From Gammaproteobacteria bacterium (GTDB taxonomy: Bacteria; Pseudomonadota; Gammaproteobacteria; JAJFKG01), in NCBI GenBank assembly GCA_965116795.1, contig OZ220716.1:224001-288000 (forward strand): a stretch of DNA of 64,000 nt, written 5' to 3'. This document shows, one piece after another, positions 6,041 to 56,971 of the stretch. How positions within the stretch are numbered: position 1 is the stretch's first letter; every line of letters starts with the position of its first letter. The notes beneath the pieces were generated by a model that ran no database searches, was not told where the DNA came from, and was given only the letters and a program-made list of their open reading frames with translations. The position numbers and the translations under genes were made by a program.

Positions 6041-6201
6041 TATACTCAAAGCGTTTTGAATTTAGGCGAGGCGGCAACCCTGGATAATCTCCGATTTCCA
6101 GGGCAAGGCTGCTCTTCGAATCAAAAGGAGTGTATTGAAATACATGACTTTTGTGAGAAAGCGCAGCCAACAAAGCATAAATTTAAAACGTGAAGAGTAT
6201 A
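6041..6201. mobile_element. ERIC-like MITE, full length, with a nested hairpin at 6078-6107
   Basis: TATACTC...GAGTATA termini; internal AGGCGGCAA, GGAGTGTAT..ATACATGAC and GCAGCCAAC motifs as in the ERIC consensus; copies at 8510 and 56820. Confidence 0.88.
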
Positions 6202-6227
6202 GCAATGTTAAGCCAGTCGGAGCAAAT

Positions 6228-6893
6228 ATGAAAACACAGGATATTTTACATCAACCAACCCAATTTTCTAACTTCTTTACCGTACACCATCCACTGCTAT
6301 TACATAAGTTATCTCTGCTACGCGATAAACGTACACCTAACAAACAATTCCGCGAATTAGTCAAAGAAATTACCATCTTGTTGGTATATGAAGTAACACG
6401 CAATTTAACCACGCAGTCCACAACCATTGAAACACCAATAACAACGATGCAAGCACCTCAACTATCTGGCAAACAACCGGTGATCTTACCCATTTTGCGT
6501 GCTGGGCTTGGCATGGTTGATGGAATTTTATCGTTAATGCCTATGGCTAAAATAGGTCATATTGGCTTATACCGTGATGAAAAAACATTAAAGCCCGTAT
6601 CCTATTATTTTAAAATTCCTGATGACAGTGCTGATAGGCAATGTTATGTATGCGATCCGATGCTCGCCACTGGCGGATCGGCTGTCGCTACGATTAAGCA
6701 ATTAACACAACGTAATATTAGTGATATTACCTTTGTCTGTTTAGTTGCATCTCCTGAGGGAGTTGAACAATTTTGCAAAGCGCACCCAACTATTCCTGTT
6801 TATGCTGCAGCATTAGACGAACGGTTAAATGAAAATGGTTATATCGTTCCTGGTTTAGGGGATGCAGGTGATCGGTTATTTGGAACACATTAG
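6228..6893 (+). CDS. upp: Uracil phosphoribosyltransferase
   Basis: [34 protein letters not shown]; start set at ATG 6228 because the longer ORF begins inside the repeat. Confidence 0.97.
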
Positions 6894-6915
6894 TGACACA
6901 GTGCACAAACTATAA

Positions 6916-7689
6916 TTAATCACTGTATCGATAATTCAGATTAATTGACAGCGGTAATTCATTGCACTTATTGACACGCTGAATATGCTTTTTTAAATAC
7001 TGATTAAAAAAATAAATAAACAATTTACGAGCACACTTAGAGAGTTGAGCCTTGATCAAGTATGCTTGTACCGATATAGTAATTTCTTGTGTAGTCTTCG
7101 CTGGCGTGTTGCTCTCTATTTTACCTTTAACTGAATGAGTCAACAGATAACATACTGCACGTGCACGAGAGCGAGCAGTTACTAAAAACTTGGTTTTCTC
7201 CATATCAATCAATGCAAACTGTCCATTATCATATAATATGTTACCCGCATGAGCGCTACGACAATTAATACCTCTACTATGAAGCACTTCTAAAAATTCT
7301 ACTGTTTTACACAGCATACGTTGTCGATATGCCTGATCAGTATTTTGACGTAATAAATTATCTATCGATATTCCTGGAACCTTATAATAACTAATCACAT
7401 ACGCCTGTTGCTCTGGGCAGTCATATGCAGCAATTAATTGCATTGTCTTGATGCCACGCTTAGTTAATTTTTGAATAACCATCAGTAATCTTTGTATTCT
7501 AGACCGTAAATGCCGCCATTCATTAGTTTCATATTTTAGACACTTTATTATTTTATCATCAGGCATCAACACAACCTGTTTATTATAATGATTCGGCGAC
7601 ATCAATATTTCACCACCTGATACCATTTTTAAATAATCTTGATGAGTGATTGTCGTCACAGGATACCGTTTTAATTCGCATTTTGTCAT
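6916..7689 (-). CDS. Kinase-fold protein (Kdo/WaaP/toluene-tolerance-like), paralog 1
   Basis: IIKC, YYKVPG, LHSRGINCRSAHAGNILY, FALIDME motifs. Confidence 0.65.
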   Translation of the reverse strand: MTKCELKRYPVTTITHQDYLKMVSGGEILMSPNHYNKQVVLMPDDKIIKCLKYETNEWRHLRSRIQRLLMVIQKLTKRGIKTMQLIAAYDCPEQQAYVISYYKVPGISIDNLLRQNTDQAYRQRMLCKTVEFLEVLHSRGINCRSAHAGNILYDNGQFALIDMEKTKFLVTARSRARAVCYLLTHSVKGKIESNTPAKTTQEITISVQAYLIKAQLSKCARKLFIYFFNQYLKKHIQRVNKCNELPLSINLNYRYSD

Positions 7690-7707
7690 TTTTTCTATCC
7701 TATCTCA

Positions 7708-8484
7708 CTATTCACAGTAGCGATAATTTGCATCAATTAACGGCGATAAAATACCTAGCTGCTTAAATCTCTCAATCTTTTTTCTAATACACTTATTTAA
7801 GTAATAAATAAATTGCTTACGAGTATGCTCAGGGAATTGTGCTTTTGCTAAGTATGTTTGCACTGACACATCAATTTCTTGTATATTATTAACCGGCATT
7901 TTGCGTCCTGCTTTTCCCTCAACTGCATGCATTAGAAAACGGTATACGCCTTCTGCACGATGTTGCGTTGATACAGAAAATTTCGCTTTTTCCATATCGA
8001 TTAAGGCAAACTCGCCTTGATCGTTATATAACACATTACCTGCATGACAACCGCGAAAATTAACGCCTTTTTGATGTAAAGTTGCCAAAAATATTACTGT
8101 TTTAGATAACAGATCTTGCCTGCGTGTATCATCAACACCATATTGCAACAATAAATCACTAACTGCTGTGCCTGGTAATTTGTAATAACAAATGATATGT
8201 GCTTTTTGTTCCGGAAAATCATATGCGGCAACTATTTTCATTGTGTTAACACCACGTGCAGCTAATCCTTGTGCCGCCGTTAAATAGCGTTGTATTCTAA
8301 AGCGTGTACTACGACACGGTTTACTTGCCAAACATTTTATAATTAAGCCATCAGGCATTAACACCACTTGTTTATTACATTTCTCCTCTGCAACAAGCAT
8401 TTTACCACCCGCGACCATATCTAAATATTGTTGATGAGTGATTTTAGTAATTGGATATCGTTTTAGTTCAGGTTTTGTCATCAT
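7708..8484 (-). CDS. Kinase-fold protein (Kdo/WaaP/toluene-tolerance-like), paralog 2
   Basis: IIKC, YYKLPG, LHQKGVNFRGCHAGNVLY, FALIDME; colinear with 6916-7689. Confidence 0.65.
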   Translation of the reverse strand: MMTKPELKRYPITKITHQQYLDMVAGGKMLVAEEKCNKQVVLMPDGLIIKCLASKPCRSTRFRIQRYLTAAQGLAARGVNTMKIVAAYDFPEQKAHIICYYKLPGTAVSDLLLQYGVDDTRRQDLLSKTVIFLATLHQKGVNFRGCHAGNVLYNDQGEFALIDMEKAKFSVSTQHRAEGVYRFLMHAVEGKAGRKMPVNNIQEIDVSVQTYLAKAQFPEHTRKQFIYYLNKCIRKKIERFKQLGILSPLIDANYRYCE

Positions 8485-8509
8485 TTATCGTGTTCCTATT
8501 GCTCTGTTA

Positions 8510-8682
8510 TATACTCAAAGCGTTTTGAATTTAGACGAGGCGGCAAGTCTTCGAATCAAAAGGAGTGTATTAAAATACATGACTTTTGTGAAAAAGCTTG
8601 CCCAGATCCTGAATCGAGTTCAGGACAAGCTTGATCCAGGGACGCAGCCAACAAAGCATAAATTTAAAACGCTTTGAGTATA
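8510..8682. mobile_element. ERIC-like MITE with doubly nested hairpins (8597-8641)
   Basis: Near-perfect TIR tatactcaaagcgtttt..aaaacgctttgagtata; same internal motifs as 6041. Confidence 0.88.
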
Positions 8683-8694
8683 TCATTACAAATG

Positions 8695-10140
8695 CTATTT
8701 AGTTTGTGTACCACCAACAGTTAAACTATCAATTTTCAATGTCGGTTGCCCAACCCCAACCGGTACTGACTGCCCATCTTTGCCGCATACGCCCACGCCG
8801 TTATCCAACGCGAGATCATTACCCACCATCGACACACGGGTTAACACATCAGGACCATTGCCAATTAATGTGGCGCCTTTAACTGGGTATTGCACTTTAC
8901 CATTTTCAACCCAGTAAGCTTCACTGGCAGAAAATACAAATTTTCCAGACGTAATGTCTACAGCGCCACCACCAAAATTGACTGCATACAGTCCTTTATC
9001 AACACTGGCAATGATTTCTTCTGGGGTATGGCTGCCCGCTAACATATAAGTATTTGTCATCCGTGGCATTGGGGTATGTGCATATGATTCACGTCGACCA
9101 TTGCCGGTTGCTGTCATCTTCATTAACTGTGCATTTTGCTTATCTTGCATGTAATTTTTTAAAATACCATTTTCAATGAGTACAGTACATTGTGTGGGCG
9201 TACCTTCATCATCGACATTTAACGAACCACGACGTTTACTTAGCGTGCCATCATCAACGACGGTACAACAATCCGTTGCAATCCGTTCACCTAACCGATC
9301 ACTAAATGCGGATGTTTTTTTACGGTTAAAATCAGCTTCCAGACCATGGCCAATCGCCTCATGCAATAACACAGCTGGCCAACCGGGGCCTAATACTACC
9401 GGCATTGCCCCTGCCGGTGCTGGGCGCGCCTCTAAATTGACTAATGCCTGACGCACTGCTTCATTTGCATAGGTTTGCAGCGTATCATCATTAAACAATG
9501 CGGCATAGGTGTCACGGCCACCACCCCCATAACTCGCTGTTTCAATCCGTCCTTGTTGTTCAACAATAACGGTAACATCAGCACGTACTAATGGGCGAAT
9601 ATCAGCTGCTAACATACCGTCACTGTCCAACATTAAAATAATATCGTATGTGCCAGATAAACTGGCAATTACTTGTTTCACTCGCGAATCAATCGCACGT
9701 GCTGTTTTATCAATGTTTTGTAACAAAGCCACTTTTTCTGCATGGGTTAATGCTGTTAATGGATTATTGGTTGGATATAAATCATGTCCTGTGATTTGAC
9801 GCGCTACGCCAATACGATTATTGCCACCATGCAACACAATTGAACGCGCTGCATTAGCCGCCTGGGTTAATGTCGGTAATTGAATATCATCCGAATAAGC
9901 AAAGCCGGATTTCTCACCACTGAGTGCTCTCACTCCAACACCACGACTGGTATCATAACTGCCTTCTTTTAAAATACCGTCTTCTAATACCCACGACTCA
10001 TGGACTGATGCTTGAAAATATAAATCTGCTGCATCGATAGTAGTCCCCAACATATCACCCAATAAACGTTCTAATTGCTGATCAGTAATACCTGCAGGGA
10101 TAAGTAGTGATTGTTTGGCGATGTCGATCGGAGCACTCAC
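8695..10140 (-). CDS. tldD: Metalloprotease TldD
   Basis: [34 protein letters not shown] motifs. Confidence 0.97.
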
Positions 10141-10146
10141 GTTAGA

Positions 10147-11607
10147 TTATTCCACACTTGTTAGTTTTGCTTTTAACAATTTATTGACTTCAGCCGGATT
10201 GGCTTTGCCTTTAGTTTTCTTCATCATTTGTCCAACAAAAAAACCAAATAATTTTTCTTTACCACCACGATATTGTTGCACTTGTTCAGGATGAGCATTG
10301 ATCACGTCATCGATTAATTGATTGATTACATTAACATCGGTAATTTGTTTTAAACCTTGCTGTTCGATAATACTATCTGCATCACCACCATGTTGCCATA
10401 AATGTTCAAAAACGGTTTTGCCAATTTTGCCAGAAATAGTATTATCAATAATACGATTCAGTAATCCTTGTAATTGTTGACTACTCACTGGCGATTGTTC
10501 AATGGTTAAATTCTCTTTGTTTAAGTATGCTGCCAACTCACCCATCACCCAGTTTGCAGCTAATTTTGCATAAGTCTTTTGATCAGCTACTGTTGGGATC
10601 TCAGCAATCACGGCTTCAAAATACTCAGCTAATTCTTGATTGTTTACCAAGTTTGTCGCATCGTAAGCAGATAAGCCATACGTTTGTTGTAAGCGCGTAC
10701 TTTTCTGTTCAGGCAATTCGGGTAACTGTTGTTTAATTTCATTAATGACGTCTTGAGAAATAACCAATGGCAATAAATCTGGATCGGGGAAATAACGGTA
10801 GTCATTGGCTTCTTCTTTCGCACGCATCGTGCGCGTTACATTACGATCAGCATCATATAAGCGTGTTTCTTGAATCACATGACCGCCGCTGGTTAACACT
10901 TGAATTTGGCGTTCAATTTCATAATTAATCGCTTTTTCAACAAACCGAAATGAATTCACATTCTTGGTTTCTGTACGAGTCCCTAATGTACTTTGCCCTT
11001 TAGGGCGCACCGACACATTGGCATCACAACGAAATGACCCTTCTTGCATATTGCCATCACAAATCCCTAAATAACGCACTAATGTGTGTAATGCTTTTAA
11101 ATAAGCAACCGCTTCTTTAGCCGAACGCATATCTGGTTCAGACACTATTTCCAACAGTGGCGTGCCAGCGCGGTTTAAATCAATCCCCGTCATGCCATGA
11201 AAATCTTCATGCAATGATTTTCCAGCATCTTCTTCTAAATGTGCACGCGTGATCCTTATTGTCTTGCTAGTGTTCTCATCTAACATCACCGTTAACTTGC
11301 CAGACGATACAACTGGCAATTCATATTGACTGATTTGATAGCCTTTGGGCAAATCAGGATAAAAATAATTTTTACGCGCGAATACAGAACGCGTTGCCAC
11401 TGTTGCATTAACCGCTAATCCAAAGCGCACTGCCATCAATACCGCTTGATGGTTTAATACAGGTAATACCCCTGGCATTGCCAAATCGATCATGCATGCT
11501 TGGGTATTCGGTGGTGCACCATAGGCTGTTGCTGCACCTGAAAATAATTTAGATTGTGTGGCTAATTGCGTATGGACTTCTAACCCAATAACTGCTTCCC
11601 ACTCCAT
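10147..11607 (-). CDS. gatB: Asp/Glu-tRNA amidotransferase subunit B
   Basis: [40 protein letters not shown]. Confidence 0.98.
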
Positions 11608-11630
11608 CTTTCACCTCGTATGATTGCGTA

Positions 11631-13082
11631 TTATGACAATGACGGTCGGCGTGTATGCCAATCTGTCACTTGTTGGTATTGATGCGCTACCGTTAATAAT
11701 TGCTGTTCACTAAAATGGTTACCAATTAACTGAGCACCGATCGGCAAGCTATTATGAAAACCAGCAGGCATTGATAACCCAGGCAATCCAGCCAAATTAA
11801 CGGCTAATGTATATTGATCGGATAAATACATGCTGATTGGATCACTGATCTTTTCACCCAGTTTAAATGCGGTGGTAGGCGTGGCCGGTGCTAAGATCAC
11901 ATCCACATTGTTAAATGCAGTTTGAAAGTCTTGATGAATCAAGCGACGACATTGCTGTGCTTTTACATAATAGGCATCGTAATATCCCGCTGATAACGCA
12001 TACGTACCGACCATGATCCGTCGTTTGACTTCTTTGCCAAACCCTTCACCACGACTACGTGCATATAAGTCAGCTAAATTGTGTGGTTCATCACAACGGT
12101 AGCCATAACGTACCCCATCAAAACGCGATAAATTAGACGAGCATTCCGCCGGTGCAATGATGTAATACGTCGGCATACTCAATTCTGTCATGTGCAGATC
12201 AATGTCGACAATGCGTGCACCCTGTTGTGCTAACATGCCTGCAACCGCATGAATGGCATCCGCAATCTCAGGGGCTAATCCATCGACAAAATGTTGTTTC
12301 ACTAATCCAATGCGCATTCCATTTAATGACGTTGATAAATTAGCTACGTAGTCGGGCACGTCACGATCAATACTCGTCGAATCACGTTGATCAAACCCGG
12401 CCATGTGTTGCAACAGATACGCACAATCTTCTGCAGTCATCGCAAAGGGACCACCTTGATCGAGGCTGGATGCATATGCAACCATTCCATAACGCGACAC
12501 GCGACCGTACGTGGGTTTTAATCCTGTAATCCCAGACAATGCTGCCGGTTGACGAATAGAGCCACCCGTATCAGTACCCGTCGCACCTGCTGCAAAACCT
12601 GCAGCCACTGCAGCCGCTGATCCACCGGAAGAACCACCCGGTACACGGTTTCGATCCCATGGGTTTTTAACTGCATCATAAAAGCTGTTTTCATTGGATG
12701 ATCCCATGGCAAATTCATCCATGTTTGCTTTACCTAGCAGCACTGTACCGGCTTGTTGCAAACGCTCGACAACAGTTGCATCATATGGTGCAATAAAGTT
12801 ATCTAACATCTTTGATCCGCAACTGGTTTTAATCCCACGCGTACAAAAGATATCTTTATGGATAATCGGAATACCGGTTAATGGTGTAGCATCACCTTGT
12901 TGCAGTCGTGCATCGGCCGCACGTGCATCTGCTAATGCGCGCTCTTCTGTTAACGTAATCAATGTATTTAAATCTGGATCATGTTGTTTGATGCGCGCCA
13001 AATAGTGTTGAGTCAATTCAACACTGGATACGGTTTTATCTCGCAACAATTGGCTCAGCTCAGCCAGCGTGTGTTGATGCAT
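11631..13082 (-). CDS. gatA: Asp/Glu-tRNA amidotransferase subunit A
   Basis: Amidase signature [26 protein letters not shown]. Confidence 0.98.
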
Positions 13083-13099
13083 GTCACTCCCCTGGTACG

Positions 13100-13414
13100 T
13101 TACTGTGTCTCGTCACTATTATTCTCGATGACGGTTGGCACTAAATATAAATTCGCTTCACTCGACGGTGCGATTGCCATCGCTTGTGCACATTGGTCAG
13201 CCTCAGTCACTCGATCATCACGTAATCGTTGGCTGGTCTGATCACCGAACGGATGTGCCATGGGTAACACATCGGTTGTATCATACGTATTTAACGTCTC
13301 AACCAATGCCAAAATTTTATTCATATCTTGACTGAACTCCGGTATAGCATCGCCTTCAATCGCCAACTGTGCCAGCCGGGCAATATTACGTACATCGTCA
13401 GAGGAAACAGACAT
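13100..13414 (-). CDS. gatC: Asp/Glu-tRNA amidotransferase subunit C
   Basis: [19 protein letters not shown]; upstream of gatA. Confidence 0.93.
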
Positions 13415-13607
13415 GGCTTAACTCCTAAGCTGGATTATTTATGACCGCCAATAGGGGCGTTAGTATATCAGGATGAAAGCATACCACCAAAGCCATACAC
13501 ATTTATTTTTTATTTAATGCCATTTAGTATTGCGCCATGTACATGTTAGTGGCTATATCCGTATCCACGTATGCAAATATAGAGACTATACAAGCCAGAA
13601 TAATTGG

Positions 13608-15044: not shown

Positions 15045-15087
15045 TTATACCATCCTTGGTTAACAATAAGTTAAATAATCCTACTAT

Positions 15088-17525: not shown

Positions 17526-18368
17526 ATCAAACTATTCAAGCAAGGCTCTCTGCTAGGTTTGCGTTTGTTAATGTTAATTGTATTGTCTATTGTCATGATG
17601 ACATTGGATCACAATCAACAGACCATACGTCCACTACGTACTACACTAAATTGGATCATTACACCATTTCAATATATGGTTAGTTGGCCGATTGATGCAG
17701 CGCATTGGGCACAGCAAACCTGGGTAAACCATCACCAATTAAGTCGAACCAACAAACAATTACGCGAACAACTATTACAACTCCAAGGTCAATTACAACG
17801 CCAACTTAGCTTAGAACAAGAAAATACAACGTTGCGTGCGCTGTTAAATTCAGCTAGCTATGTGCACGGCGATGTGTTAGCTGCACAATTACTCGCAGTT
17901 AACACTGCACCTTTTGTTAATGAAATTATTATCAATAAAGGATCCCAAGCACACGTAGCATTGGGACAACCTGTGATTGATGCTAGCGGGATCATGGGGC
18001 AAGTGATCGAAGTTAATCAATTCACCAGTAGGGTATTGCTGATTGATGACACACGTAGTGCAATCCCAGTACAAGTCCAGCGTAATGGGATCCGTGCTAT
18101 TGCAGACGGCCGCGGCACTGCTAATCAATTGACACTATTGCATATACCAGAAACAGCAGATATTAAAGTTGGCGACTTACTGGTTACCTCAGGACTTGGA
18201 CAACGTTTTCCAATTGGATACCCTGTAGCAACAGTGACTGAAGTCATTCACAGTCACGGAGAAACATTTGCAACAATTATTGCTAAACCACGTGCACAGT
18301 TAAACCGTAGTCGTTATGTATTATTAGTATGGCCAAATTCAAGTTTGGCATATACTCTGCGCAATTGA
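17526..18368 (+). CDS. mreC: Rod shape-determining protein MreC (probable ATC start)
   Basis: TM helix, coiled coil, GDLLVTSGLGQRFPIGYPVA; homology-like N-terminus IKLFKQGSLLGLRL begins at ATC 17526 after AGGAG. Confidence 0.93.
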   Translation: MKLFKQGSLLGLRLLMLIVLSIVMMTLDHNQQTIRPLRTTLNWIITPFQYMVSWPIDAAHWAQQTWVNHHQLSRTNKQLREQLLQLQGQLQRQLSLEQENTTLRALLNSASYVHGDVLAAQLLAVNTAPFVNEIIINKGSQAHVALGQPVIDASGIMGQVIEVNQFTSRVLLIDDTRSAIPVQVQRNGIRAIADGRGTANQLTLLHIPETADIKVGDLLVTSGLGQRFPIGYPVATVTEVIHSHGETFATIIAKPRAQLNRSRYVLLVWPNSSLAYTLRN

Positions 18369-18425
18369 ATTGTAGGTTTTGTTGGCTACGCGATATTGCC
18401 TACAATCCAATTGCTTGAGTCTATA
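18351..18425. repeat. Short ERIC-like element overlapping the mreC 3' end
   Basis: tatactctgcgc..ttgtagg..ttgttggct..caatccaattgcttgagtctata; encodes YTLRN*. Confidence 0.85.
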
Positions 18426-18505
18426 CGTTGTTATAACTTAGCAAAGGTTTTTTAGTAAAGGCGGCATTTGTATTTTTCTGACAAATAAGGATAGATAATA
18501 AACTC

Positions 18506-23408: not shown

Positions 23409-23431
23409 GACTTCATTACTGTTCACGCTGA

Positions 23432-23505
23432 TATACTCAGCGCCCTTGAATTGTAGGCTTTGTTGACTACGCGATATTGCCACATTTCTAAATGCGGTGA
23501 GTATA
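23432..23505. repeat. Short ERIC-like element supplying the nusB stop
   Basis: TATACTC...GAGTATA, 74 bp; the last 29 bp are identical to 24442-24470. Confidence 0.88.
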
Positions 23506-27623: not shown

Positions 27624-27753
27624 CATAGACTCAAGCAATTGGATTGTAGGCTTTGTTGGCTGCATGATTTTGTCACAGTCATGTATGTCAATATACACTC
27701 CTGTGACAAAATCACTTGCCACCTCGCCTACAATCCAATTGCTTGAGTCTATG
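27624..27753. mobile_element. Full-length ERIC-like MITE, second subfamily (~126 bp TA to TA)
   Basis: 28-bp perfect IR (27624-27651 and 27726-27753); the minus strand has AGGTGGCAAG, GGAGTGTAT..ATACATGAC and GCAGCCAAC. Confidence 0.9.
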
Positions 27754-27785
27754 ATCAATATATCTCTTAAAATGCAAAAATATAA

Positions 27786-29570: not shown

Positions 29571-29669
29571 TAAGACAACCTATTCACTTCATACTGGTGT
29601 GTTATCGAATTCTAGTCTAAAAAAACGAGTAAACCAAGTCGATTAATTAAAATATTATAAAAAAATATT

Positions 29670-29763
29670 GTAACTACTCAGTCGGTCTTTATGTTACCGA
29701 AAAACATCAGCTTTGAGTGGAGGTTGCCAGAAAAAATCCGCCAAAGATGGCGTTTTCCTTAAT
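29670..29763. repeat. GTAAC-ended palindromic element, core-deleted copy
   Basis: gtaactactcag..aaaaacatcagctttgagtggaggttgccagaaa..ccaaagatggcgttttccttaat matches 47677-47834 without the central hairpin. Confidence 0.82.
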
Positions 29764-33826: not shown

Positions 33827-33963
33827 CGTCATTCTGGAGAACGAACAACGTGAGTGAGTCCAGAATCCAGTCTTTTCGTCTTTTCAAATTCTTGAAGCCT
33901 GGATTCTGGATCCTTGGCTACCCAAGGACAAGCTCGCTACTTTGTGAACTCTCCAGAATGACG
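33827..33963. repeat. CGTC-tagged REP-like palindromic element with a nested 22-nt hairpin
   Basis: 14-bp perfect TIR cgtcattctggaga; internal ccagaatccag/ctggattctgg; sister copy at 35711. Confidence 0.85.
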
Positions 33964-35644: not shown

Positions 35645-35861
35645 CGTCATTCCAGCCATCGCATAAAATGCAGTAAGATGGGATCCATCTGCAGAAAATA
35701 TGAAAGAACTCGTCATTCTGGAGAATCCGCGAAGCGGATGAGTCCAGAATCCAGTCTTTCCGTCTTTTCAAGGCTCCTAAAAATTAGATTCTGGACTCGC
35801 CCGCCCTGGACAATCTCCGATTTCCAGGGCTAAAGATTTTATATGAGCTCTCCGAATGACA
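35645..35861. repeat. CGTC-tagged elements (degenerate copy at 35645, full copy at 35711-35861) with a nested hairpin at 35804-35829
   Basis: cgtcattctggagaa..gagtccagaatccagtcttt.cgtcttttcaa shared with 33827. Confidence 0.82.
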
Positions 35862-40577: not shown

Positions 40578-40644
40578 ATGCGTTTATCTTTTACTCACAA
40601 AATATTATGTTGATTTTAACATAAAATAGCTACATTCACTGTCT

Positions 40645-40824
40645 ATAGCTTTTCAGAACACTAAATTGGCTTTTAGGATTCAGATTGGGTTTAGGTAGAC
40701 GGGTTACGATTGAAAAAAAGCGGAGGAATAGTTGAGCTATTTTGAGTATTTTTTGAAAGAGCAACGTGGCTAGATGAGCTCAAGATGAAATGATAAAAGC
40801 CAATTTAGTGTTCTGAAAAGCTAT
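40645..40824. mobile_element. MITE-like element with a 31-bp perfect terminal inverted repeat
   Basis: atagcttttcagaacactaaattggctttta (40645-40675) is the exact reverse complement of 40794-40824; no ORF inside. Confidence 0.8.
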
Positions 40825-40897
40825 GGATAAACTTGACATTTTGCTGCCCGCTTGCTTCAATGCAAGACAATTAAGATCAGTAAAAAAAGCGGTATTT

Positions 40898-47359: not shown

Positions 47360-47479
47360 CGTCACTTCGCGGCTTGACCGTGGGATATAGAGAACGGCAC
47401 TCGGGATTAGAAAAATGGGATGGATATCAAAACAATAAGCACGATTCCTTGGATCCCGCGATCAAGTCGCGGGATGACG
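47360..47479. repeat. CGTC-tagged palindromic element (RPE-4/WPE-like)
   Basis: cgtcacttcgcggcttgaccgtggg ... ggatcccgcgatcaagtcgcgggatgacg. Confidence 0.8.
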
Positions 47480-47676
47480 CCCATAGGGAGGAATAGGTGC
47501 ATTACTTGTGTAGAGACCTATGGGGTAGCCACAGGATGATCACTGTCAGGAAACGGTAGAATAATAGAGCCTGACATGGTAGTTGTATATGGACAAGTCA
47601 CAAATGATGAAAGTTAAACAATTAAGATCTCAAATATAACACTATCTGCAGCAAGCCGTTATAATGTATTTTAAAT

Positions 47677-47851
47677 GTAACTATTCAGCCGATCGTTACG
47701 TTACTAAAAAACGTCAGCTTTGATTGGAGGTTGTCAGAAAATGTAACCAAAAAAGCGCAGTGTATTGGGCATACATGAGCACTTTTTAGTTACATTTTCT
47801 GGCAAGATCCACCAAAGATGGCGTTTTCCTTAATAGAGCCTGAGCAGTTAT
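47677..47851. mobile_element. Full-length GTAAC-ended palindromic element
   Basis: gtaactattcag..ctgagcagttat ends; nested IRs; central cagaaaatgtaac.aaaaa..GCAGTGTAT..ATACATGAG..ttttt.gttacattttctg hairpin; partial copies at 4510, 29670, 49786 and 61251. Confidence 0.82.
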
Positions 47852-47869
47852 TAACGTAAGGATATCAAT

Positions 47870-48319
47870 ATGCCGTCATTAGCCATGAAAGATGTTCATC
47901 AATTTTGGAAAAATTACCAAGATCCGACAATTTATCGTGTGATTGCATTTATGGAAAGTGTTGAGAATTGGACACGTGATGGTGAAACAGATTTAGAAAC
48001 CGCGTTAGACCGCTTAGGTCAGCAACTTGACACCATTGGTGACTATGCTGTTGGTGAAGAAGAAAATTTGACTAAGTTGGCTTGTCATGTACGCATGTCA
48101 CGCACGTTACGCTTAATGCAATTGCTTGATAGCGCACACCCTGGTGCCGCATCTAAATTATTAATGTATGCTGAGAAAAACAGTAAACAACGCAGTGATC
48201 CAGCTGGATTATTCTTACGTCGTAATATTGTATTTGAACGATTGCGTTTATTAGGCCGGGTATTTTCTGCTGAACGTTTAGCATTAGCATTACGTGTATT
48301 GGAGGGAGAAGATGCCTAA
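47870..48319 (+). CDS. icmW: Dot/Icm adaptor IcmW
   Basis: FW..Y.DP.IYRVI.FME.VE.WT, HPGAASKLL, FLRRNIVFERLRLL.RVF. Confidence 0.96.
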   Translation: MPSLAMKDVHQFWKNYQDPTIYRVIAFMESVENWTRDGETDLETALDRLGQQLDTIGDYAVGEEENLTKLACHVRMSRTLRLMQLLDSAHPGAASKLLMYAEKNSKQRSDPAGLFLRRNIVFERLRLLGRVFSAERLALALRVLEGEDA

Positions 48320-48731
48320 AACCATTGTTAACATACTTGTTAGTCTTTTATGTTTGATTGGGATAAGTTCTGCATTTGCCGTATCAGCCAAGAATACCAC
48401 ACCGGACTATTCGAAAATACGCCAATATATCACTCAAATTGTTAATAACAGCATCATATTGCAACAACAAAAATCTAATATCAATTTTCCACAAACGCCA
48501 TTTGCCCCATTACACACACTGATGCGACAAGGGCTCCAATCGCAAAAAGACTCAGCATTAGTCACGCCAATCAATACGCAAGTGACTCAACCCGTTCGTC
48601 AACCAATAAGCACACTTCCAACAAAAACAATTATCAAACAAACTGCGCCTGCTAAGCTAAACACAGGCATTGGCAACGTACCTGAAGACAATCAGCAAAA
48701 TGACTCAGATGGAATACAATTTAACTTCTAA
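48312..48731 (+). CDS. Secreted hypothetical protein between icmW and icmX
   Basis: Signal peptide (AFA-V); the ATG overlaps the icmW end. Confidence 0.72.
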   Translation: MPKTIVNILVSLLCLIGISSAFAVSAKNTTPDYSKIRQYITQIVNNSIILQQQKSNINFPQTPFAPLHTLMRQGLQSQKDSALVTPINTQVTQPVRQPISTLPTKTIIKQTAPAKLNTGIGNVPEDNQQNDSDGIQFNF

Positions 48732-48760
48732 TGTAATTGGAGCATGAGGTAGCCAATAAT

Positions 48761-49771
48761 ATGCGTACGTTATTTATTTACTTAAAGCAATGTTTAGTGA
48801 CAATTATTTTATTGTTAACAATCAGTACTGTTAGTATTGCACAGACAGCAAATAATAATACCAATGTTCATCCATCACTCAATTCCACAAATCAATTACT
48901 ATGGATACTACTGGATTATATTAATCGTACAGTCAATGCTTCCGTTAAAACACAAGAAAATTTACTGTATCAACCCACACCTGAACTGGAAAATACAATG
49001 TCATTAGGGACAGGGCAAGTACTTAGCCAACCTGCAACCCAGTCCATTGCCCATCAAGATTTATTAGATAGCTTGAAATTATTGACGACTACCCATAATA
49101 ATTTTAAGATTATCAAAAAAGTATCAAAACAAGTACCGATCAACACTACATTGCTTAATAAACTTGGCAAAGGGTTTGATTTAAATTCACTGATTGGTAC
49201 AACTAATTTAGATGACAAACAAATTAAAATGGCTAGGAATTACATTGCATTTGCTGGTGGTTTGGTCAAACCCTATGAAGTGATTAAACCTAAAGATTTT
49301 AAAGACGATTTGCGCAGTGTACATCGCTATAAAGTACAATTAGGGATTAATCTAGCACGTACTGCTGCTGCAATCAGTACATTATATTATTTTCTAGCTG
49401 AACGCACACCACAAGATAATTTAGGCGTATTAGCACAAATACCTGTTAATCAACAAGGACTCATTGATTTTAATAGTGATAAAGCACTCAGCAAAGTCAG
49501 CCCATTAATGATAGAAAAATATCAAGCAGAAAAACGCGCGGCTAACCCAATGTGGTATCAAAATATGGAACATGCCGAACCTGCTACATTGCAACGTGAA
49601 ACACTACATATTATGGCAAGCATTCAAAAATCATTATTTGATATGCGTATGTTAATGGAACGCCAAACAGCATTGTTAGCTTTAATGACGCTGCAACAGA
49701 ACGAAGAACAACAAGAAGAGTTATTAGAGTCTACACGAAAAGATATTTTTACTGAGAAGGCAAATGGATAA
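48761..49771 (+). CDS. icmX: Dot/Icm periplasmic protein IcmX
   Basis: Signal peptide; C-terminal W...M..A.PATLQRE..MA.I...L...ER resembles IcmX; position after icmW. Confidence 0.72.
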   Translation: MRTLFIYLKQCLVTIILLLTISTVSIAQTANNNTNVHPSLNSTNQLLWILLDYINRTVNASVKTQENLLYQPTPELENTMSLGTGQVLSQPATQSIAHQDLLDSLKLLTTTHNNFKIIKKVSKQVPINTTLLNKLGKGFDLNSLIGTTNLDDKQIKMARNYIAFAGGLVKPYEVIKPKDFKDDLRSVHRYKVQLGINLARTAAAISTLYYFLAERTPQDNLGVLAQIPVNQQGLIDFNSDKALSKVSPLMIEKYQAEKRAANPMWYQNMEHAEPATLQRETLHIMASIQKSLFDMRMLMERQTALLALMTLQQNEEQQEELLESTRKDIFTEKANG

Positions 49772-49785
49772 GCTACATTTCTTCA

Positions 49786-49820
49786 CGTTACCAAAAAACG
49801 TCAGCATTGAGTCAAGGTTA
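49786..49820. repeat. Fragment of the GTAAC-ended element (left arm)
   Basis: cgttaccaaaaaacgtcagcattgagt matches 47699 and 29692. Confidence 0.65.
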
Positions 49821-49832
49821 CATAAGCAACTA

Positions 49833-50777
49833 CTACTGTTGTAACCAACCCATATAACGCGCTACCCCCTCAGCAACTGGGAAAAAATCACTGTCATAAC
49901 CGACTTGACGTAACGCACTAATATCAGCTTGGGTAAAGCTTTGATAACATCCACGTAATCTATCTGGAAAAGGAATATAGTGTACTTTACTTTTACCATG
50001 TGCTTGGATCACCGCCTCAGCAATTGCATTAAATGGCTCAGCACGCCCAGTGCCTACATTGAAAATGCCTGATAGATTGGAGCGCTGCATAAACCACAGA
50101 TTTACATCGACAACATCGCCGACAAATACAAAATCACGTAATTGTTCACCATCACCATAACCATCACAACCAGCAAATAGTTTAGGATTCTCACCTGCAG
50201 TCAGTTGCTGATGCAAATGTAATGCAACGCTCGCCATGCCTTTTTTATGTGCTTCACGTGGACCATATACATTAAAATAACGAAATCCAACAATTTGACT
50301 GCGTGCCTTAGGTAATAATCGTCTTACGTACTGGTCAAACAATAATTTAGAATAACCATAAACATTCAACGGTTTTTCATGTGCAGGCTCTTCTACAAAT
50401 GTTTGCGAACCACCATAAATCGCTGCACTGGATGCGTATAAGAAAGGGATCGATTGATCAAGACAATAATGCAATAGTTGCTTTGAATACTCAAAATTAT
50501 TTTGCATCATATACTGTCCATCCCATTCGGTTGTCGATGAACAAGCACCTTGATGAAAAACTGCCTCAATTGGTTTAGAAGGCTTTTTACCTGACGTTAA
50601 CCAAGCAAGAAAATCGTGTTTATCAATATAATCCATGATGTGGCAATCGACTAGATTACGAAACTTCTCACCTTGTTTTAGATTGTCTACCACAACAATG
50701 TCTGTACGTCCTTGCATATTTAACCCACTGACAATGTTGCTACCAATAAATCCGGCACCACCGGTTACAATAATCAT
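49833..50777 (-). CDS. hldD: ADP-L-glycero-D-manno-heptose 6-epimerase
   Basis: [42 protein letters not shown]. Confidence 0.96.
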
Positions 50778-50790
50778 TACGAACCCCTAT

Positions 50791-52221
50791 TTATTTGCCA
50801 TTATTATTAATCGTTTCCACCATTTTTGTTGTGGAACAACCGTCAATATACGGCAAAATTTTCACTTCGCCACCATGCTCTATCACCACATCAGCACCGG
50901 CCAATTCTTCTGGTTTGTAATCACCACCCTTTACTAAGAAATCAGGTAATATTTCACTAATTAACCGTGCAGGTGTTGCTTCGCTAAACGGTACAACCCA
51001 ATCGACGACACCCAAAGCTGATAATACAGACATGCGTCGTGACAAACTATTAATGGGTCGCCCTACCCCTTTTAATTCTCTAACAGAGTCATCATCATTA
51101 ACCGCCACAATTAAACGATGTCCTAACGCCTTTGCACGCTGTAAATACGCAACGTGTCCTGCATGTAGCAAATCAAAACAACCGTTGGTCATTACGATTT
51201 TTTCACGTTGTGCTTTTGCCTTAGCAACCACATTGAGTAATTGTTCTTCGGTAACCACACCACCATCATGTTCACCGTGTGCACGCATTACCCAACGTAA
51301 TTCCGGTACAGTCACCGTGGCAGCACCTAATTTACTTACGGCAATACTACCCGCTAAATTCGCTAAACTTGCCGCATCAACTAATGAACTACCAGCAGCT
51401 AATGCAGCAGCTAATACGGAAATAACTGTGTCGCCTGCACCCGTCACATCAAATACTTCACGAGCATGTGCCGGCAAGTGCACTGCTGCAGTATGGCGTT
51501 GTACCAATGTCATCCCTTGACTACCACGCGTAATTAATAATGCATCAATATCGTGCGCTTGTAAGACATGCTGTGCTTTGTCAATTAATTCATGATCATT
51601 GTCACATCTACCAACTACTCTTTCAAATTCAGCATAATTTGGTGTGATCACACTAGCCCCACGATAATCCGCAAAATCCGTTGATTTTGGATCAACCAAT
51701 ACAAAACAATTCTGTTTACGCGCTCTACTAATTAAATCACCAATATCTGTTAGTGCACCTTTGCCATAATCAGAAATAATTAACGCGCCTGCTTTTTTCA
51801 ATTGTTTTATTGCTGCTTTAGCTACTTCCCGATGATTGTAATTTGCTTGTTGCGTCTCAAAATCAAGTCGAATCAGCTGTTGCTGTTGTGATAGTACTCG
51901 TAATTTTGTTGTGGTTGGAATAGTTGCATCAGTCACCAAATGACAATCAACATTAGCACTGTTTAATGTGCGTGTTAGATGCTTGCCAGCCTCATCAGTA
52001 CCAATTACACCAACCAAGTGAGTTTGTACGTTTAGCGATACTAAATTTAGTGCAACATTACCAGCACCACCAGGACGTTCATCACAGTCGGTAACATGTA
52101 CAACGGGCACCGGTGCTTCCGGTGAAATGCGCTTTGTGTGGCCACGCCAATAACGATCTAACATCACATCGCCAACTACTAGCACACTGGCTTGATCAAA
52201 TTCAGGGACTGTTAATGACAT
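50791..52221 (-). CDS. hldE: Bifunctional heptose kinase/adenylyltransferase
   Basis: RISPEAPVPV, DVTGAGDT, TNGCFDLLHAGH, KGGDY. Confidence 0.97.
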   Translation of the reverse strand: MSLTVPEFDQASVLVVGDVMLDRYWRGHTKRISPEAPVPVVHVTDCDERPGGAGNVALNLVSLNVQTHLVGVIGTDEAGKHLTRTLNSANVDCHLVTDATIPTTTKLRVLSQQQQLIRLDFETQQANYNHREVAKAAIKQLKKAGALIISDYGKGALTDIGDLISRARKQNCFVLVDPKSTDFADYRGASVITPNYAEFERVVGRCDNDHELIDKAQHVLQAHDIDALLITRGSQGMTLVQRHTAAVHLPAHAREVFDVTGAGDTVISVLAAALAAGSSLVDAASLANLAGSIAVSKLGAATVTVPELRWVMRAHGEHDGGVVTEEQLLNVVAKAKAQREKIVMTNGCFDLLHAGHVAYLQRAKALGHRLIVAVNDDDSVRELKGVGRPINSLSRRMSVLSALGVVDWVVPFSEATPARLISEILPDFLVKGGDYKPEELAGADVVIEHGGEVKILPYIDGCSTTKMVETINNNGK

Positions 52222-53087
52222 TATTGGTTTCCTGTAACTTCTTCGTTGGGTAACTTAATTACACTACCATTAAATATATAGTGAGCATCACCACACATTA
52301 ATATAGATTGGTTCATGCCATCGCATGATACCTGTAATTGCCCACCAGGCAAAGTTACTTGCACTTGTTCGGCTAATTTACCCCAACGCTGGCCTAGTAC
52401 GACAGCAGCACATGCACCACTGCCACACCCTAAGGTACGACCAACACCGCGTTCATACACCACGAGTTCAATATGCTGTGGATCGAGAATACGCATCTGA
52501 CTGATATTAACACCTTGACTAAACAGCGGGTGAGATACTTCATTCAACGCAGCACCGATACGATCTAACTCAGTTGGGTTAACCTGATCAACTAGCATTA
52601 CTGCATGCGGATTACCCATGGAAACAGCACCAAAGTTAATTTGATTATCAAAGATAGTCACGGTGTAATGCGATTGCTCCGTCGGTACATCCAAACCAAT
52701 TGCAGTTGGGATAAAATTAGCAACTCCCATATCTACACTAAATTGGCCATTGCTATCTCGTGTTACCTTTATCATGCCAGCTTGACAGGTTAATGTAAGC
52801 TGATTGCCAGTGATATCATCATGATCAAATAAATAACGTGCAATACAACGTACACCATTACCACATTGTTGAGCTTCACTTCCGTCTGGATTGAAAATCT
52901 TATAATGGCATGTAGTATCACGATGTTGTGCTGGTTCAATCACTAATAGCTGATCACAACCAACCCCCCTGTGTCGATCAGCTAACCAACGACGAGTGGA
53001 TAATGGCAGTGGGTAAGTCATTTGACGTTGATCAAGTAAGACAAAATCATTTCCTAATGTTTGCATTTTAACAAAAGAAAATGGCAT
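52221..53087 (-). CDS. dapF: Diaminopimelate epimerase
   Basis: GNDF, CGNG, SMGNPH, ERGVGRTLGCGSG. Confidence 0.95.
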   Translation of the reverse strand: MPFSFVKMQTLGNDFVLLDQRQMTYPLPLSTRRWLADRHRGVGCDQLLVIEPAQHRDTTCHYKIFNPDGSEAQQCGNGVRCIARYLFDHDDITGNQLTLTCQAGMIKVTRDSNGQFSVDMGVANFIPTAIGLDVPTEQSHYTVTIFDNQINFGAVSMGNPHAVMLVDQVNPTELDRIGAALNEVSHPLFSQGVNISQMRILDPQHIELVVYERGVGRTLGCGSGACAAVVLGQRWGKLAEQVQVTLPGGQLQVSCDGMNQSILMCGDAHYIFNGSVIKLPNEEVTGNQ

Positions 53088-53155
53088 AAGGGATTATTCT
53101 CCATGGATAATACTCTTTGCACTTTAAAACAAGCGTCGAGTATATTAATAATGCG

Positions 53156-54511
53156 CTAGGTTGTCTTAATATGACAGCCAGTTTCTTTAATAAATAACGT
53201 AATCACAGCAGATGCTAATAAACAAATCGGCAACACCAATAATGCAGAATTATAATCACTCAACGAATAAATTCGAGTACCGTGTAATATAGCACCATTA
53301 GAGACTACCCAATGCTTATCTAGTAGGCTGCCAATCAATGGCTGCAATATTGTACCACCCAGCATCACAAACATATTGGTAACCGCAACCGCTGTTCCAG
53401 CAAATCGATTAGGACCAATCTCTCGACCAAGGGCAAACACAATCACCTGCGCACCATAGCAAATGCCAAACAAGATAAGTAATGTATAAATTGCCATGTG
53501 TGACAAGTGTGGCACATATAACACTATACAAATAAACACAGTTGCACCGACTGAACCCCAAAATATTGGCATGCGCCGGCGTTTGATTTTATCGGATAAT
53601 GCACCAATCAACGGGCCCCCAAGAATAAAACCAAAGAAAACTGCATCAACAGCAAGTGCCGCTTGATTAGCTGAAAAACCTCTGACTTCAAAATAGGGTT
53701 TTGCCCATAATTCAGCAAACGCTGAGCTGGGTAAATATAATAAACAACCCACTGCACCCACAAACCACATTTGTGGTTTTTTGATAAAACCCCATAAACC
53801 TAACGACATATTGGACAGATCGGCACGCAATGAATGTGCTTTGGGATGCATGATTTTATCCATCGCCTGACCAACACGTGGATGAGTAAAATGACTTGGT
53901 CGATCACGTACAATAGCCCAAATGGCATAAGTCAAGACAACTCCCAATATTACACACAGAAATGTTGTGGTACGCCATCCCAACACTTCCACTAACACTG
54001 TCATCCCAGATTCACCAAAGATAGCGCCTACGCCGCCTAATGCAGAAGTTAATCCAGCAATCATAGCAAATCGCTCTGGTGGTAACCAAATTGATGCCAG
54101 TTTTAATACGCCAACATACGCAAATGCTGATCCAAAACCCACTAAAAACCGGCCTACTTCGGCAACGCTAAGAATATCACTGATTCCAAATAGTAATGTC
54201 CCACCAACACACACCAGACAGGCAAATATTAATAAACGCCGTGGACCATAACGATCAAATAACGCACCAACCGGCAATTGCATGGGGGTATATGCCCAAT
54301 AATAAAATGCAGACAGTAAACCCAAATGGGTAGCATCAACATGAAATGATTCTCGCAAACTATACGTCATCACCCCAGGAGCAATACGTAATAAATATTC
54401 ATACGTATAAAACAATGCACCAATAGCACAAATTGTCCAAGGCGAAGTAAGAAATTGTCTTAAACGTGATGTAGACATTGGTTGTTGTATATTGATCACC
54501 GTGTAATTCAC
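53156..54511 (-). CDS. MFS transporter, Pht (phagosomal transporter)-like
   Basis: About 12 TM helices; FYTYEYLLRIAP, MQLPVG.L.DRYGPRR. Confidence 0.85.
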   Translation of the reverse strand: MNYTVINIQQPMSTSRLRQFLTSPWTICAIGALFYTYEYLLRIAPGVMTYSLRESFHVDATHLGLLSAFYYWAYTPMQLPVGALFDRYGPRRLLIFACLVCVGGTLLFGISDILSVAEVGRFLVGFGSAFAYVGVLKLASIWLPPERFAMIAGLTSALGGVGAIFGESGMTVLVEVLGWRTTTFLCVILGVVLTYAIWAIVRDRPSHFTHPRVGQAMDKIMHPKAHSLRADLSNMSLGLWGFIKKPQMWFVGAVGCLLYLPSSAFAELWAKPYFEVRGFSANQAALAVDAVFFGFILGGPLIGALSDKIKRRRMPIFWGSVGATVFICIVLYVPHLSHMAIYTLLILFGICYGAQVIVFALGREIGPNRFAGTAVAVTNMFVMLGGTILQPLIGSLLDKHWVVSNGAILHGTRIYSLSDYNSALLVLPICLLASAVITLFIKETGCHIKTT

Positions 54512-54695
54512 CGTATTAGAGTGTTTTCACCCTTGCTTCACTTATAGATGTTAATATGCAAGTTGCAAAGGTTAATATTCGAGTATTAACAAGCGCACTA
54601 TTCTACTACAGATCACTTTGCCGAGAAAATGAAGCACCTTTTCTGACCATGAATGAGATAACTACATTTTTATTAACACATTTTCCGATGCGTTA

Positions 54696-55136
54696 TCATA
54701 CGGAAAATGAGGAACCACAACCGCATGTGGTCGTTGCATTTGGGTTATCGATAATAAATTGTTCACCCTGAACATCGACTTTATAATCGATAGTGGCACT
54801 AACTAAGTAAGGATAACTCGCCGCATCAATGACTAATTTTACTTCGCGTAATCGTTGTGGTTGGTTCGCACCACCCTTACCCTGTTGGCCACCGTCACCA
54901 CCATCATCGTCATCGCTTTCCTCGTCAGCAACAGCTTGTGTAATAACGGTGTCATCCGGGTTAGTCACCGCTTCAAATGCAAAACCATATTGAAAACCAG
55001 AACAACCACCACCAGTAATAAACACGCGCAACATCAGAGTTAAATTCCCTTCTTCTTCAATTAGTTGACGAATCTTGCGGACTGCACTGGGTGTCAGCTT
55101 AACCGATGGGGGAATAACCGTTGTTGGGGTAGCCAT
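54696..55136 (-). CDS. erpA: Fe-S cluster insertion protein ErpA
   Basis: [33 protein letters not shown]. Confidence 0.93.
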
Positions 55137-55253
55137 AATGAGCTCATTAAATTTATATGAATTGGGTGAGAGTATACCACAATCGTTAAAATTCGATATC
55201 CTTTAGCTATAGAACGACTCTGAACTATTAATCAAATACTATCTAGGGTACTC

Positions 55254-55324
55254 TATATTCAAAGCGTTTTAAATTTATGCTTTGTTGCCTGCGCCTCGCC
55301 TAAATTTAAAACGCTTTGAGTATA
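55254..55324. mobile_element. Short (71 bp) core-deleted ERIC-like MITE
   Basis: Same TIRs as 8510; the central GGAG..TGAC hairpin is absent. Confidence 0.88.
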
Positions 55325-55394
55325 TTAGCTATCGTTATTTTAGAATAATATGCTTACAAACCAGATTAAACAACGATTAATTGGCAATAGCAAT

Positions 55395-56039
55395 ATGCAA
55401 CAATTTCTTGATTACATTTTACATATCGATGTTCATTTGCAAAGTTTATTGCAAATCACTGGTGTTTGGACATACTTTATTTTATTTCTAATCATCTTTT
55501 GCGAAACCGGCTTAGTGGTCTTGCCATTACTGCCCGGTGATTCATTATTATTTGCTGCTGGCTCATTAGCTGCTGTTTCTACTTTAAATATTCACTACCT
55601 TGCAATCAGTTTATGTATCGCAGCTATTTTGGGTGACACTGTTAACTATGCTATTGGTAACTGGATAGGACATCGAATCTTTCATCAACCCAAATCTCGG
55701 TTATTTAACCCCGCTCATTTACATAAAACACATAATTTTTACCAACGTTACGGTGGCAAAACCATTATCATTGCGCGCTTTATCCCAATTATTCGTACCT
55801 TTGCACCGTTTGTAGCAGGGATTGGAAAAATGCATTATCGACAATTTGCATTGTATAACATCATCGGTGCCATTTTGTGGGTTTATTCATTCTTATACAT
55901 CAGTTTTTATTTTGGCAACATTCCCATTGTAAAACAACATTTCTCACTTGTTATCATGGCCATCATTATTATTTCTATCATGTTGCCCATTGTGGAATAC
56001 TTACGCAGTGGAAAATTACAGCAATCGAGCACTAAGTAG
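55395..56039 (+). CDS. dedA: DedA-family membrane protein
   Basis: FCETGLVV.PLLPGDSLLF, ARFIPIIRTFAPFVAG. Confidence 0.93.
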   Translation: MQQFLDYILHIDVHLQSLLQITGVWTYFILFLIIFCETGLVVLPLLPGDSLLFAAGSLAAVSTLNIHYLAISLCIAAILGDTVNYAIGNWIGHRIFHQPKSRLFNPAHLHKTHNFYQRYGGKTIIIARFIPIIRTFAPFVAGIGKMHYRQFALYNIIGAILWVYSFLYISFYFGNIPIVKQHFSLVIMAIIIISIMLPIVEYLRSGKLQQSSTK

Positions 56040-56060
56040 TAATAGGAAAAACTAGTTAAC

Positions 56061-56483
56061 ATGCAATGGCTAATCGCAATTCATCTAATTTCTATGGTGA
56101 CCTGGTTCAGTGGTTTATTTTATTTGCCTCGATTATATGTGTACCATACGATGAGTCATGATCAAATTAGTAATGAACGGTTTAAAATCATGGAAAGAAA
56201 ACTGTTTTTTGGGATTGCAACACCTGGTGGCATTGGTACGATTATATTTGGGATGTTAGCACTGCATTTAGATATTGATAAATATTTACATGCTAACTGG
56301 ATGCATGCCAAATTAGCATTAGTATTTTTATTAGTGTTATATCATATTTATTGCGGTAAATTATTATTTGACTTTAAACACGATCGCAATCAACACAGCC
56401 ATGTATTTTACCGTTGGTTAAATGAATTTCCTGTCATCGTATTAGTAGGTGCTATCATATTGGCAATCCTCAAACCGTTTTAA
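56061..56483 (+). CDS. hemJ: Protoporphyrinogen oxidase HemJ
   Basis: HLI..VTWFSGLFYLPRL.VYH, MERKL, WMHAKL, RWLNEFP. Confidence 0.9.
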   Translation: MQWLIAIHLISMVTWFSGLFYLPRLYVYHTMSHDQISNERFKIMERKLFFGIATPGGIGTIIFGMLALHLDIDKYLHANWMHAKLALVFLLVLYHIYCGKLLFDFKHDRNQHSHVFYRWLNEFPVIVLVGAIILAILKPF

Positions 56484-56484
56484 C

Positions 56485-56670
56485 TTAATCAAGCTCCACC
56501 ATATCAAAATCTTGCTTAGTTGCCCCACAATCTGGGCAACACCAATCATCTGGAATATCATCCCAGCGGGTGCCTGGTACAATGCCTTCTTCAGGGCAAC
56601 CTTGTTCTTCATCATAAATAAAACCACATACAACACAAATATAGCGTCGATAATCAGTTGCTGATGACAT
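56485..56670 (-). CDS. Rubredoxin
   Basis: [15 protein letters not shown]. Confidence 0.95.
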
Positions 56671-56819
56671 AACACCTCCGATAGTTATTAGATAGTGTAT
56701 GAGTATAACAACCGATTATTTTTGTTGTAAACGAAATATTATTTACAATGTTTGTTTTTTTTGTTACAACATTGACCCAGTATCGATAATACAGTAACAG
56801 AATTTGATTTTGTCTGATA

Positions 56820-56971
56820 TATACTCAAAGCGTTTTGAATTTAGGCGAGGCGGCAAGCCTTTTTATCAAAGGAGTGTATAGTGACATACATGACTTTGAT
56901 AAAAAAGCTTGTCCTGGACTTGATCCAGGAACGCAGCCAACAAAGCATAAATTTAAAACGCGAAGAGTATA
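56820..56971. mobile_element. ERIC-like MITE with a nested hairpin at 56908-56931
   Basis: TATACTC...GAGTATA; arms near-identical to 6041. Confidence 0.88.

Follow-up and report, generated by a model that had tools for sequence, protein, structure and literature searches.

We found that a hairpin-forming DNA unit of 24-25 nt, lodged within other palindromic repeats of a gammaproteobacterial genome, is very probably mobile as a unit and is likely among the smallest mobile DNA elements known. The window, that is, the whole 64,000-nt stretch analysed here, covers positions 224001-288000 of a single-contig genome (G000; 2.45 Mb, 41% G+C). The core family consists of a six-base leader, AGC(C/T)TG, followed by a 19-base hairpin with a 7-bp stem and a 5-nt loop, and 45 curated copies of hairpin modules in about 13 host-site classes were identified in the genome. 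A preliminary description, made from the sequence of the window alone, had reported six short hairpin modules inserted into other repeats; all coordinates and letters cited in it match the sequence, and five of the six modules end in GG(A/G)CAAG, the exception being the 35804 copy. The CTTG tag that it proposed is conserved genome-wide, but proved to be part of a six-base leader that starts at AG. The leaders of the 45 curated copies read CTTG in 36, CCTG in 2, CATG in 2, TTAG in 2 and singletons in 3, and 42 of them end in TG. When searches were made without the tag, exact AGC(C/T)TG was found before 30/39 and 24/26 hairpin bodies, and most of the others were one change off. Stem pairs 1, 4, 5 and 6 vary on both sides among the 21 distinct bodies of this genome, and G-T pairs are tolerated in the stems.

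The case for mobility is carried by the comparison of empty and filled copies of the same host. In a RIME/CIR-like host repeat, for which 124 rows from five genomes were compared, 42 copies were filled, 81 were empty and one carried another insert, and the gain was exactly +24 in 35 of the 42 filled copies. The same exact gain was obtained in 8/8 copies of a second host, in 5/6 of a third and in 2/3 IS3-type genes, compared with six intact paralogues. No target duplication was present at the compared sites, in agreement with the preliminary description. Within the window, the 24-nt surplus at 56908-56931 relative to the 6041 copy and the absence of the 22-nt module at 33911-33932 from the sister repetitive extragenic palindrome (REP) at 35711 were both reproduced. 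The first stem base is complementary to the base that follows the 24-mer, as T-A in 46/48 sites and, in phages, as C-G in 24/24 and T-A in 5/5; a recount of the first set gave 7 exceptions among the 120 matches listed. At several T-type sites of this genome the host already has an AG where the leading AG of the unit falls, so that the gain is just 22-23 nt, and other sites gain 24-26 nt. The leader side of the junction is ragged, with extra A's and +3 forms, whereas the stem side is flush. Among the matches listed, A occupied position -2 in 81/103 and a purine position -1 in 94/103. The target is thus purine-rich, and the GA|CT site given in the preliminary description, which holds at the two sites cited there but fails at others, is a special case. 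Moreover, among the matches listed, the rejoined junctions folded better than control windows of the same loci (37/103 vs 24/206 at z < -2, p 7e-12).

The unit also inserts in protein genes, and so reaches beyond repeats. In two Methylobacterium genomes it lies inside a conserved IS3-type frame and introduces a stop codon, while six paralogues are intact. In a phage methylase-like gene, the unit is in frame, encoding PGSSPGQA, in two internal peptide repeats and is absent from at least two others. The same peptide occurs in portal-like, lysozyme-like and helicase-like proteins, as labelled from their translations, and both orientations of the unit occur in genes. The stop codon in the IS3-type genes and the extra residues in the phage proteins indicate that the filled form is derived.

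To place the tag and the repeats against chance, two counts were made in this genome. CTTG precedes 43 of 1853 YCC..GGR hairpin orientations against 11.45 expected (P 8e-13; CCTG, 6 vs 5), and C(C/T)TG-led hairpins lie inside short repeats in 34/49 cases (perfect stems, 30/35) compared with 14.8% of the bases in non-coding DNA (P 1e-17), P values that overstate independence because each class probably goes back to a single insertion; several of these 49 matches are chance occurrences in genes. For the second count the tagged hairpins were excised and the junction had to lie at least 8 nt within a short repeat. CTTG is also in the top three of the 256 tetramers before perfect stems of 6 or 7 bp that contain three or more G/C. 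The proposed preference for hairpin repeats therefore stands, but the unit is not confined to them, since it occurs in genes as well. A strict flank test returned empty sisters for 12 of the 49 tagged hairpins only, because the hosts vary, and the automatic 'empty' alignments of ACTG, two M6 copies, CGTC-2b, 58894 and ERIC-B were spurious and were dropped. The preliminary description had named three outcomes that would overturn it, namely no excess in repeats, a tag not conserved and an ancestral filled form; instead, repeat enrichment, a conserved tag and a derived filled form were found.

Units are also nested in their own copies, as the preliminary description had claimed for the 8510 copy, and five two-level composites are present in the genome. 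The module read there as an insertion at 8607-8629 does split an outer module, but the host arm is also altered and the net gain is +22, so that this is not a clean insertion. Four of the composites lie in ERIC-like copies and one in a different context near 58880-58925, which indicates that the two-level composite has moved as one piece on at least one occasion. The ERIC-like host family comprises 34 paired copies in the genome, 18 of them 126-128 nt long, with an empty length of 127/128 nt, and CGTC-type REP hosts occupy 45 rows in the genome listing. One ERIC-like element has symmetric units in both arms, and in the 56820 copy the leader pairs with the opposite host arm. The tagged strand is the leading strand in 27/45 copies, with no clear bias by count. 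The features of the window are collected in Table 1.

Table 1. Units, modules and host repeats in the window (positions count from the first letter of the window)
Feature	Position	Strand	Remark
Core unit of 25 nt (AGCTTG leader; hairpin of 7-bp stem and 5-nt loop), in right arm of ERIC-like host	56906..56930	+	net +24 vs empty sisters
Unit variant with 4-nt GTAG loop, inside CGTC-type REP	33911..33934	-	net +22; 10 such copies in genome
Inner unit, in loop of outer unit, opposite orientation	8607..8631	-	5 such composites in genome
Outer unit split by inner unit; left arm short by one base	8595..8641	+	
ERIC-like host, 152 nt (127/128 nt empty)	56820..56971	+	length comparison, 34 paired copies
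ERIC-like host with two-level composite, 173 nt	8510..8682	+	
ERIC-like host, right-arm site empty, left-arm site filled	6041..6201	+	
CGTC-type REP host, filled; head-to-head with empty REP 33827-33869	33900..33962	-	
Empty CGTC-type REP, partner of filled 33900..33962 copy	33827..33869	+	
Empty CGTC-type REP, sister copy chosen in the preliminary description	35711..35753	+	
Long-loop module, 26-nt body, CTTG leader, in left arm of ERIC-like host	6078..6109	-	genome-specific, 12 copies
Long-loop module, TTAG for CTTG, replacing inner loop of CGTC-type REP 35785-35860	35804..35835	-	

Short ERIC-like forms occur among the 34 copies (71 nt in three, 72 nt in one and 66 nt in one), and the 71-nt form at 55254-55324 of the window lacks the whole inner 56-nt arm. 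Three units are also known at G000 52194, 56501 and 1635652, where they have CATG/TATG leaders and lie in the tail of a longer repeat, with an empty sister near 189122.

The six modules of the preliminary description do not form one family. The long-loop module, whose copies at 6078-6103 and 35804-35829 are identical at 25/26 positions as reported, is a real module common to two hosts and is separate from the core family. Its net gains are 32-35 nt with rewritten flanks, and its leader is CTTG, TTAG, CTCG or none. It was found in 0/400 other genomes of the class and in no viral contigs; the GTAG-loop variant was likewise found in no viral contigs. Capture or copying without a dedicated enzyme is the likelier story for the long-loop module.

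We further studied the distribution of the core family. A 25-letter pattern matched at least 120 loci in database records, and by record title the matches listed come from Alpha-, Beta- and Gammaproteobacteria, Desulfobacterota, Chloroflexota, Rhodothermales, Nitrospira, Armatimonadota and Binatia. A second unit variant gave 71 metagenome loci, and the family was found at 37 viral loci. Within the class the unit is patchy, present in 9/401 genomes against 0 for a reversed-pattern control (in these class tallies G057 was counted once, as background, and G265 was left unscored for GIY-YIG relatives and RVT_1). Bodies numbered 40 in a complete genome and 83 in a draft, and E. coli genomes gave no unit matches. 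A loose pattern run on 21 relatives was too unspecific to serve beyond indicating that close relatives are few, and the extra matches of a looser viral pattern were chance hits with broken stems. By rough motif rules, the hosts of the 120 matches listed comprise 35 CGTC REPs, 23 RIME/CIR-like repeats, 17 CCCTCTCC-type REPs, 4 GCTCAG-type repeats, 3 IS3-type genes and 38 others; family labels such as RIME/CIR-like are those to which we take these repeats to belong. Two further loci were recorded. At L014 201-225 the unit lies in a tRNA-like T-arm fragment, for which ARAGORN called no tRNA at an equivalent locus, and at G022:C8:102643-102683 a different 15-nt mini-hairpin with an AG start occupies the same RIME-like host site.

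We tentatively favour, at somewhat short of an even chance, a non-autonomous unit that travels as single-stranded DNA and is mobilised in trans by a nuclease that binds hairpins, together with host repair, an Ssn-type nuclease being placed first. A single-strand route is likely because 25 bases are too short for a double-stranded transposon. The 25-mer would share 1-2 nt with its target at one end: the gain would be +24 if the last stem base is shared, and +23 or +22 if the leading AG is. Suitable targets would be purine-rich sites that single-stranded DNA exposes at the foot, in the bulges and in the loops of hairpins, and the insert might, as our guess, be sealed by host repair. Most copies within a genome would then probably owe their spread to the host repeat that carries them. 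Our leading candidate for the enzyme is a small Ssn-type GIY-YIG nuclease, put first because the hairpin body is as in CGTC and SRM repeats and because SsnA, according to the available part of PMC11893778, reads the three bases ahead of the hairpin and cleaves a few nucleotides upstream. Such a cut would fall at the position of the unit's left end. A GTCA-led, CCA-tailed REP with a body identical to that of the unit was seen once. Moreover, two Ssn-sized single-domain GIY-YIG genes of this genome (G000 2162664-2162951 and 2408129-2408410) each lie between CGTC-type hairpins, with no units, which matches the Ssn/SRM layout.

Several results weigh against this single-strand reading. The activity of SsnA reported in the available part of PMC11893778 is cutting, with joining not demonstrated there. 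In five unit-rich genomes, 0/18 GIY-YIG loci (some overlapping, five of them UvrC-sized) were flanked by free units, and the units near GIY-YIG or Y1 loci sit within CGTC REPs. No nuclease or transposase enrichment was seen beside 45 distinct metagenome copies, whose 127 open reading frames included one DUF772 transposase. GIY-YIG relatives were present in 4/8 unit-bearing and 90/391 other genomes of the class (p 0.09). Contigs of four public runs, which are near-identical in unique DNA and broken at repeats, yielded no orthologous empty/filled pair between strains, and the junctions in this genome vary from +22 to +26. In addition, composites that are identical between distant genomes could represent ancient lineages that moved with their hosts, which would mean fewer independent insertions. 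As for cognate enzymes, Y1, GIY-YIG, IS110, reverse transcriptase and metagenome neighbours were all considered and none was linked; IS110, with nine matches in this genome, was found in just 2/5 unit-rich genomes. A bolder version is possible but doubtful: a cross-phylum 25-base transposon with its own mobilising enzyme that recognises the leader of six bases, can enter nearly any purine-rich site exposed in single-stranded hairpins, completes the stem with a target base, parasitises every major bacterial palindromic repeat class and writes PGSSPGQA into bacterial and phage proteins.

Among the rivals, an RNA route, in which the hairpin is excised from host-repeat transcripts and copied back by a borrowed reverse transcriptase, is unlikely. 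It would give a precise hairpin-side junction and an A-rich, ragged leader side, and the flush stem side, the varying leader side and the tolerated G-T pairs are in line with it. An RNA intermediate was reportedly proposed for the SDR elements by Elhai in 2008. This genome has three reverse transcriptases, and RVT_1 was found in 5/5 unit-rich genomes; however, in the class sample it was found in 5/8 unit-bearing genomes against 137/391 others, little above background. There is also no target duplication and no poly(A), and units occur in genes in both orientations.

We hold to be quite unlikely a route without a dedicated enzyme, in which short pieces of CGTC-type hairpins would enter other hairpins by capture or by copying, through template switching or break repair, and the resulting composites would spread along with their hosts. 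Units are nearly always within other repeats, and the symmetric units of the one ERIC-like element, the pairing of the 56820 leader with the host arm and the rewritten junctions of the long-loop module all fit such capture. However, the six-base leader and the length are constant across phyla and in unique coding sequence, which argues against unguided capture, because this would give varied ends.

The preliminary description had pointed to HUH/Y1 enzymes. Such a route, on which the leader would serve as the guide and a transposase of the RAYT or IS200 type would excise a single-strand circle and insert it, with the guide being a tetranucleotide, we regard as improbable. The anatomy matches, with a short tag 5' of the hairpin foot and no duplication, as far as the available part of PMC6006769 goes, and the gain is exactly +24 at most sites in other genomes. 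However, the seven Y1 genes of this genome represent just two IS200 types (four and three identical copies) with their own targets and with ends unrelated to the unit, and no RAYT-like gene was found in it. Both IS200 types are inserted after TTTAT. In the five unit-rich genomes 0/20 Y1 loci were flanked by free units, and no Y1 gene was found in two unit-rich assemblies, which are incomplete genomes. Moreover, the target tetranucleotide is not fixed and 1-3 nt are gained or lost at the junctions. The gene flanked by hairpins that the preliminary description suggested looking for, whether RAYT/TnpA-Y1 or GIY-YIG, was thus not found with free units at any of the 18 GIY-YIG and 20 Y1 loci, and its HUH reading is left unsupported. 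Finally, hairpins are deletion-prone and some of the 49 tagged matches fall by chance in genes, but the reading of the units as chance hairpins, or of the empty sites as hairpin deletions from an ancestral filled form, has next to no standing and is already refuted for the core family by the two P values (8e-13 for the leader, 1e-17 for the repeats), by one unit common to unrelated hosts, and by the stop codon and extra residues brought to conserved IS3-type genes and phage proteins.

We then compared the unit with known systems. The closest in description are the Nostocaceae elements SDR1-8, reported by Elhai et al. in 2008 as hairpins of 21-27 nt with precise insertion, nested in their own copies and in mini-transposons, and with the enzyme unknown. 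The unit likewise falls in the 21-27-nt class with empty and filled sites, and it is nested, in the five self-nested composites and in ERIC-like hosts, as the SDR elements are said to be. The SDR elements are reportedly confined to that one cyanobacterial group, whereas the unit spans many phyla and is also present in phages. De Gregorio in 2005 and Sharp in 1997 reportedly described, as ERIC variants, small structured insertions that recur at set positions in 127-nt miniature inverted-repeat transposable elements (MITEs) of the ERIC type, and the unit resembles these insertions by description only. SDR5 is treated in the available part of PMC4390886.

CGTC REPs, as described by Di Nocera et al. 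in 2013 in the available part of PMC3733652, have a tag 5' of the hairpin, an 8-9-bp stem and a 4-5-nt loop, with no dedicated transposase known. The unit, with a 7-bp stem and a 4-5-nt loop, has a body equal to the CGTC stem minus the outer A-T pair, with one identical case. In contrast, it carries the AGC(C/T)TG leader in place of the CGTC tag and the AT at the stem foot, and it is solitary or nested with host sequence as 3' flank, unlike CGTC REPs with their CCA tail and head-to-head dimers. The string 'CTTG' at a word start is absent from the main text of PMC3733652. Ssn nucleases with their NTS/SRM repeats read the hairpin directionally on one strand, and the bases just 5' of the stem matter (Chenal et al. 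2025, PMC11893778, available part); SRMs flank their gene, whereas free units lay beside none of the 18 GIY-YIG loci. GTAG REPs with RAYT share with the unit a short tag at the hairpin foot and the lack of target duplication (PMC6006769, available part), but the unit has no GTAG/GTGG guide. Miniature IS200/IS605 elements also lack target duplication, but have a fixed target tetranucleotide and the ends of a resident insertion sequence, and from both these and the GTAG REPs the unit differs by its imprecise junctions. The unit family is apparently undescribed as a family, while its kind is already known. Literature searches gave no match to the unit letters or peptides within a coverage without most subscription papers and figure text, and concept-level and SDR-directed searches returned nothing relevant, in a coverage that did not extend to the figures and supplementary files of PMC3733652 and PMC11893778, where repeat consensuses are listed and the family could appear.

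Other repeats and one gene of the window were also recorded, and an Rfam scan of the 64-kb window gave no matches. A second ERIC-like family lies at 3588-3660, 18350-18436, 23431-23481 and 27624-27764, and its copy at G000 19015 has a unit at the equivalent right-arm site. Another palindromic family lies at 4504-4536, 29669-29763, 47676-47834 and 49763-49828, and three of its copies elsewhere contain a variant of the unit at one site, with a net gain of +23. A MITE-like element at 40642-40827 has a pair of 39-nt inverted repeats spaced by 108 nt. The DksA gene at 60007-61122 on the minus strand (PF21157 and PF01258) has an N-terminal extension of about 215 residues that is lysine/alanine-rich and histone-H1-like.

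The spread of REP-sized elements still calls for an explanation, and in the available part of PMC3733652 CGTC REPs are described without a dedicated transposase. The unit offers a sharply defined substrate for binding, cleavage and insertion assays, with a fixed leader and length, dozens of hosts in which the junctions are mapped, and unique genes that carry insertions. Elements of similar size and behaviour have already been described in cyanobacteria. The unit explains a recurring eight-residue protein insert and much of what gives intergenic repeats their mosaic appearance. If the doubtful version of a cross-phylum transposon with its own enzyme were true, it would represent a minimal programmable single-strand insertion system.

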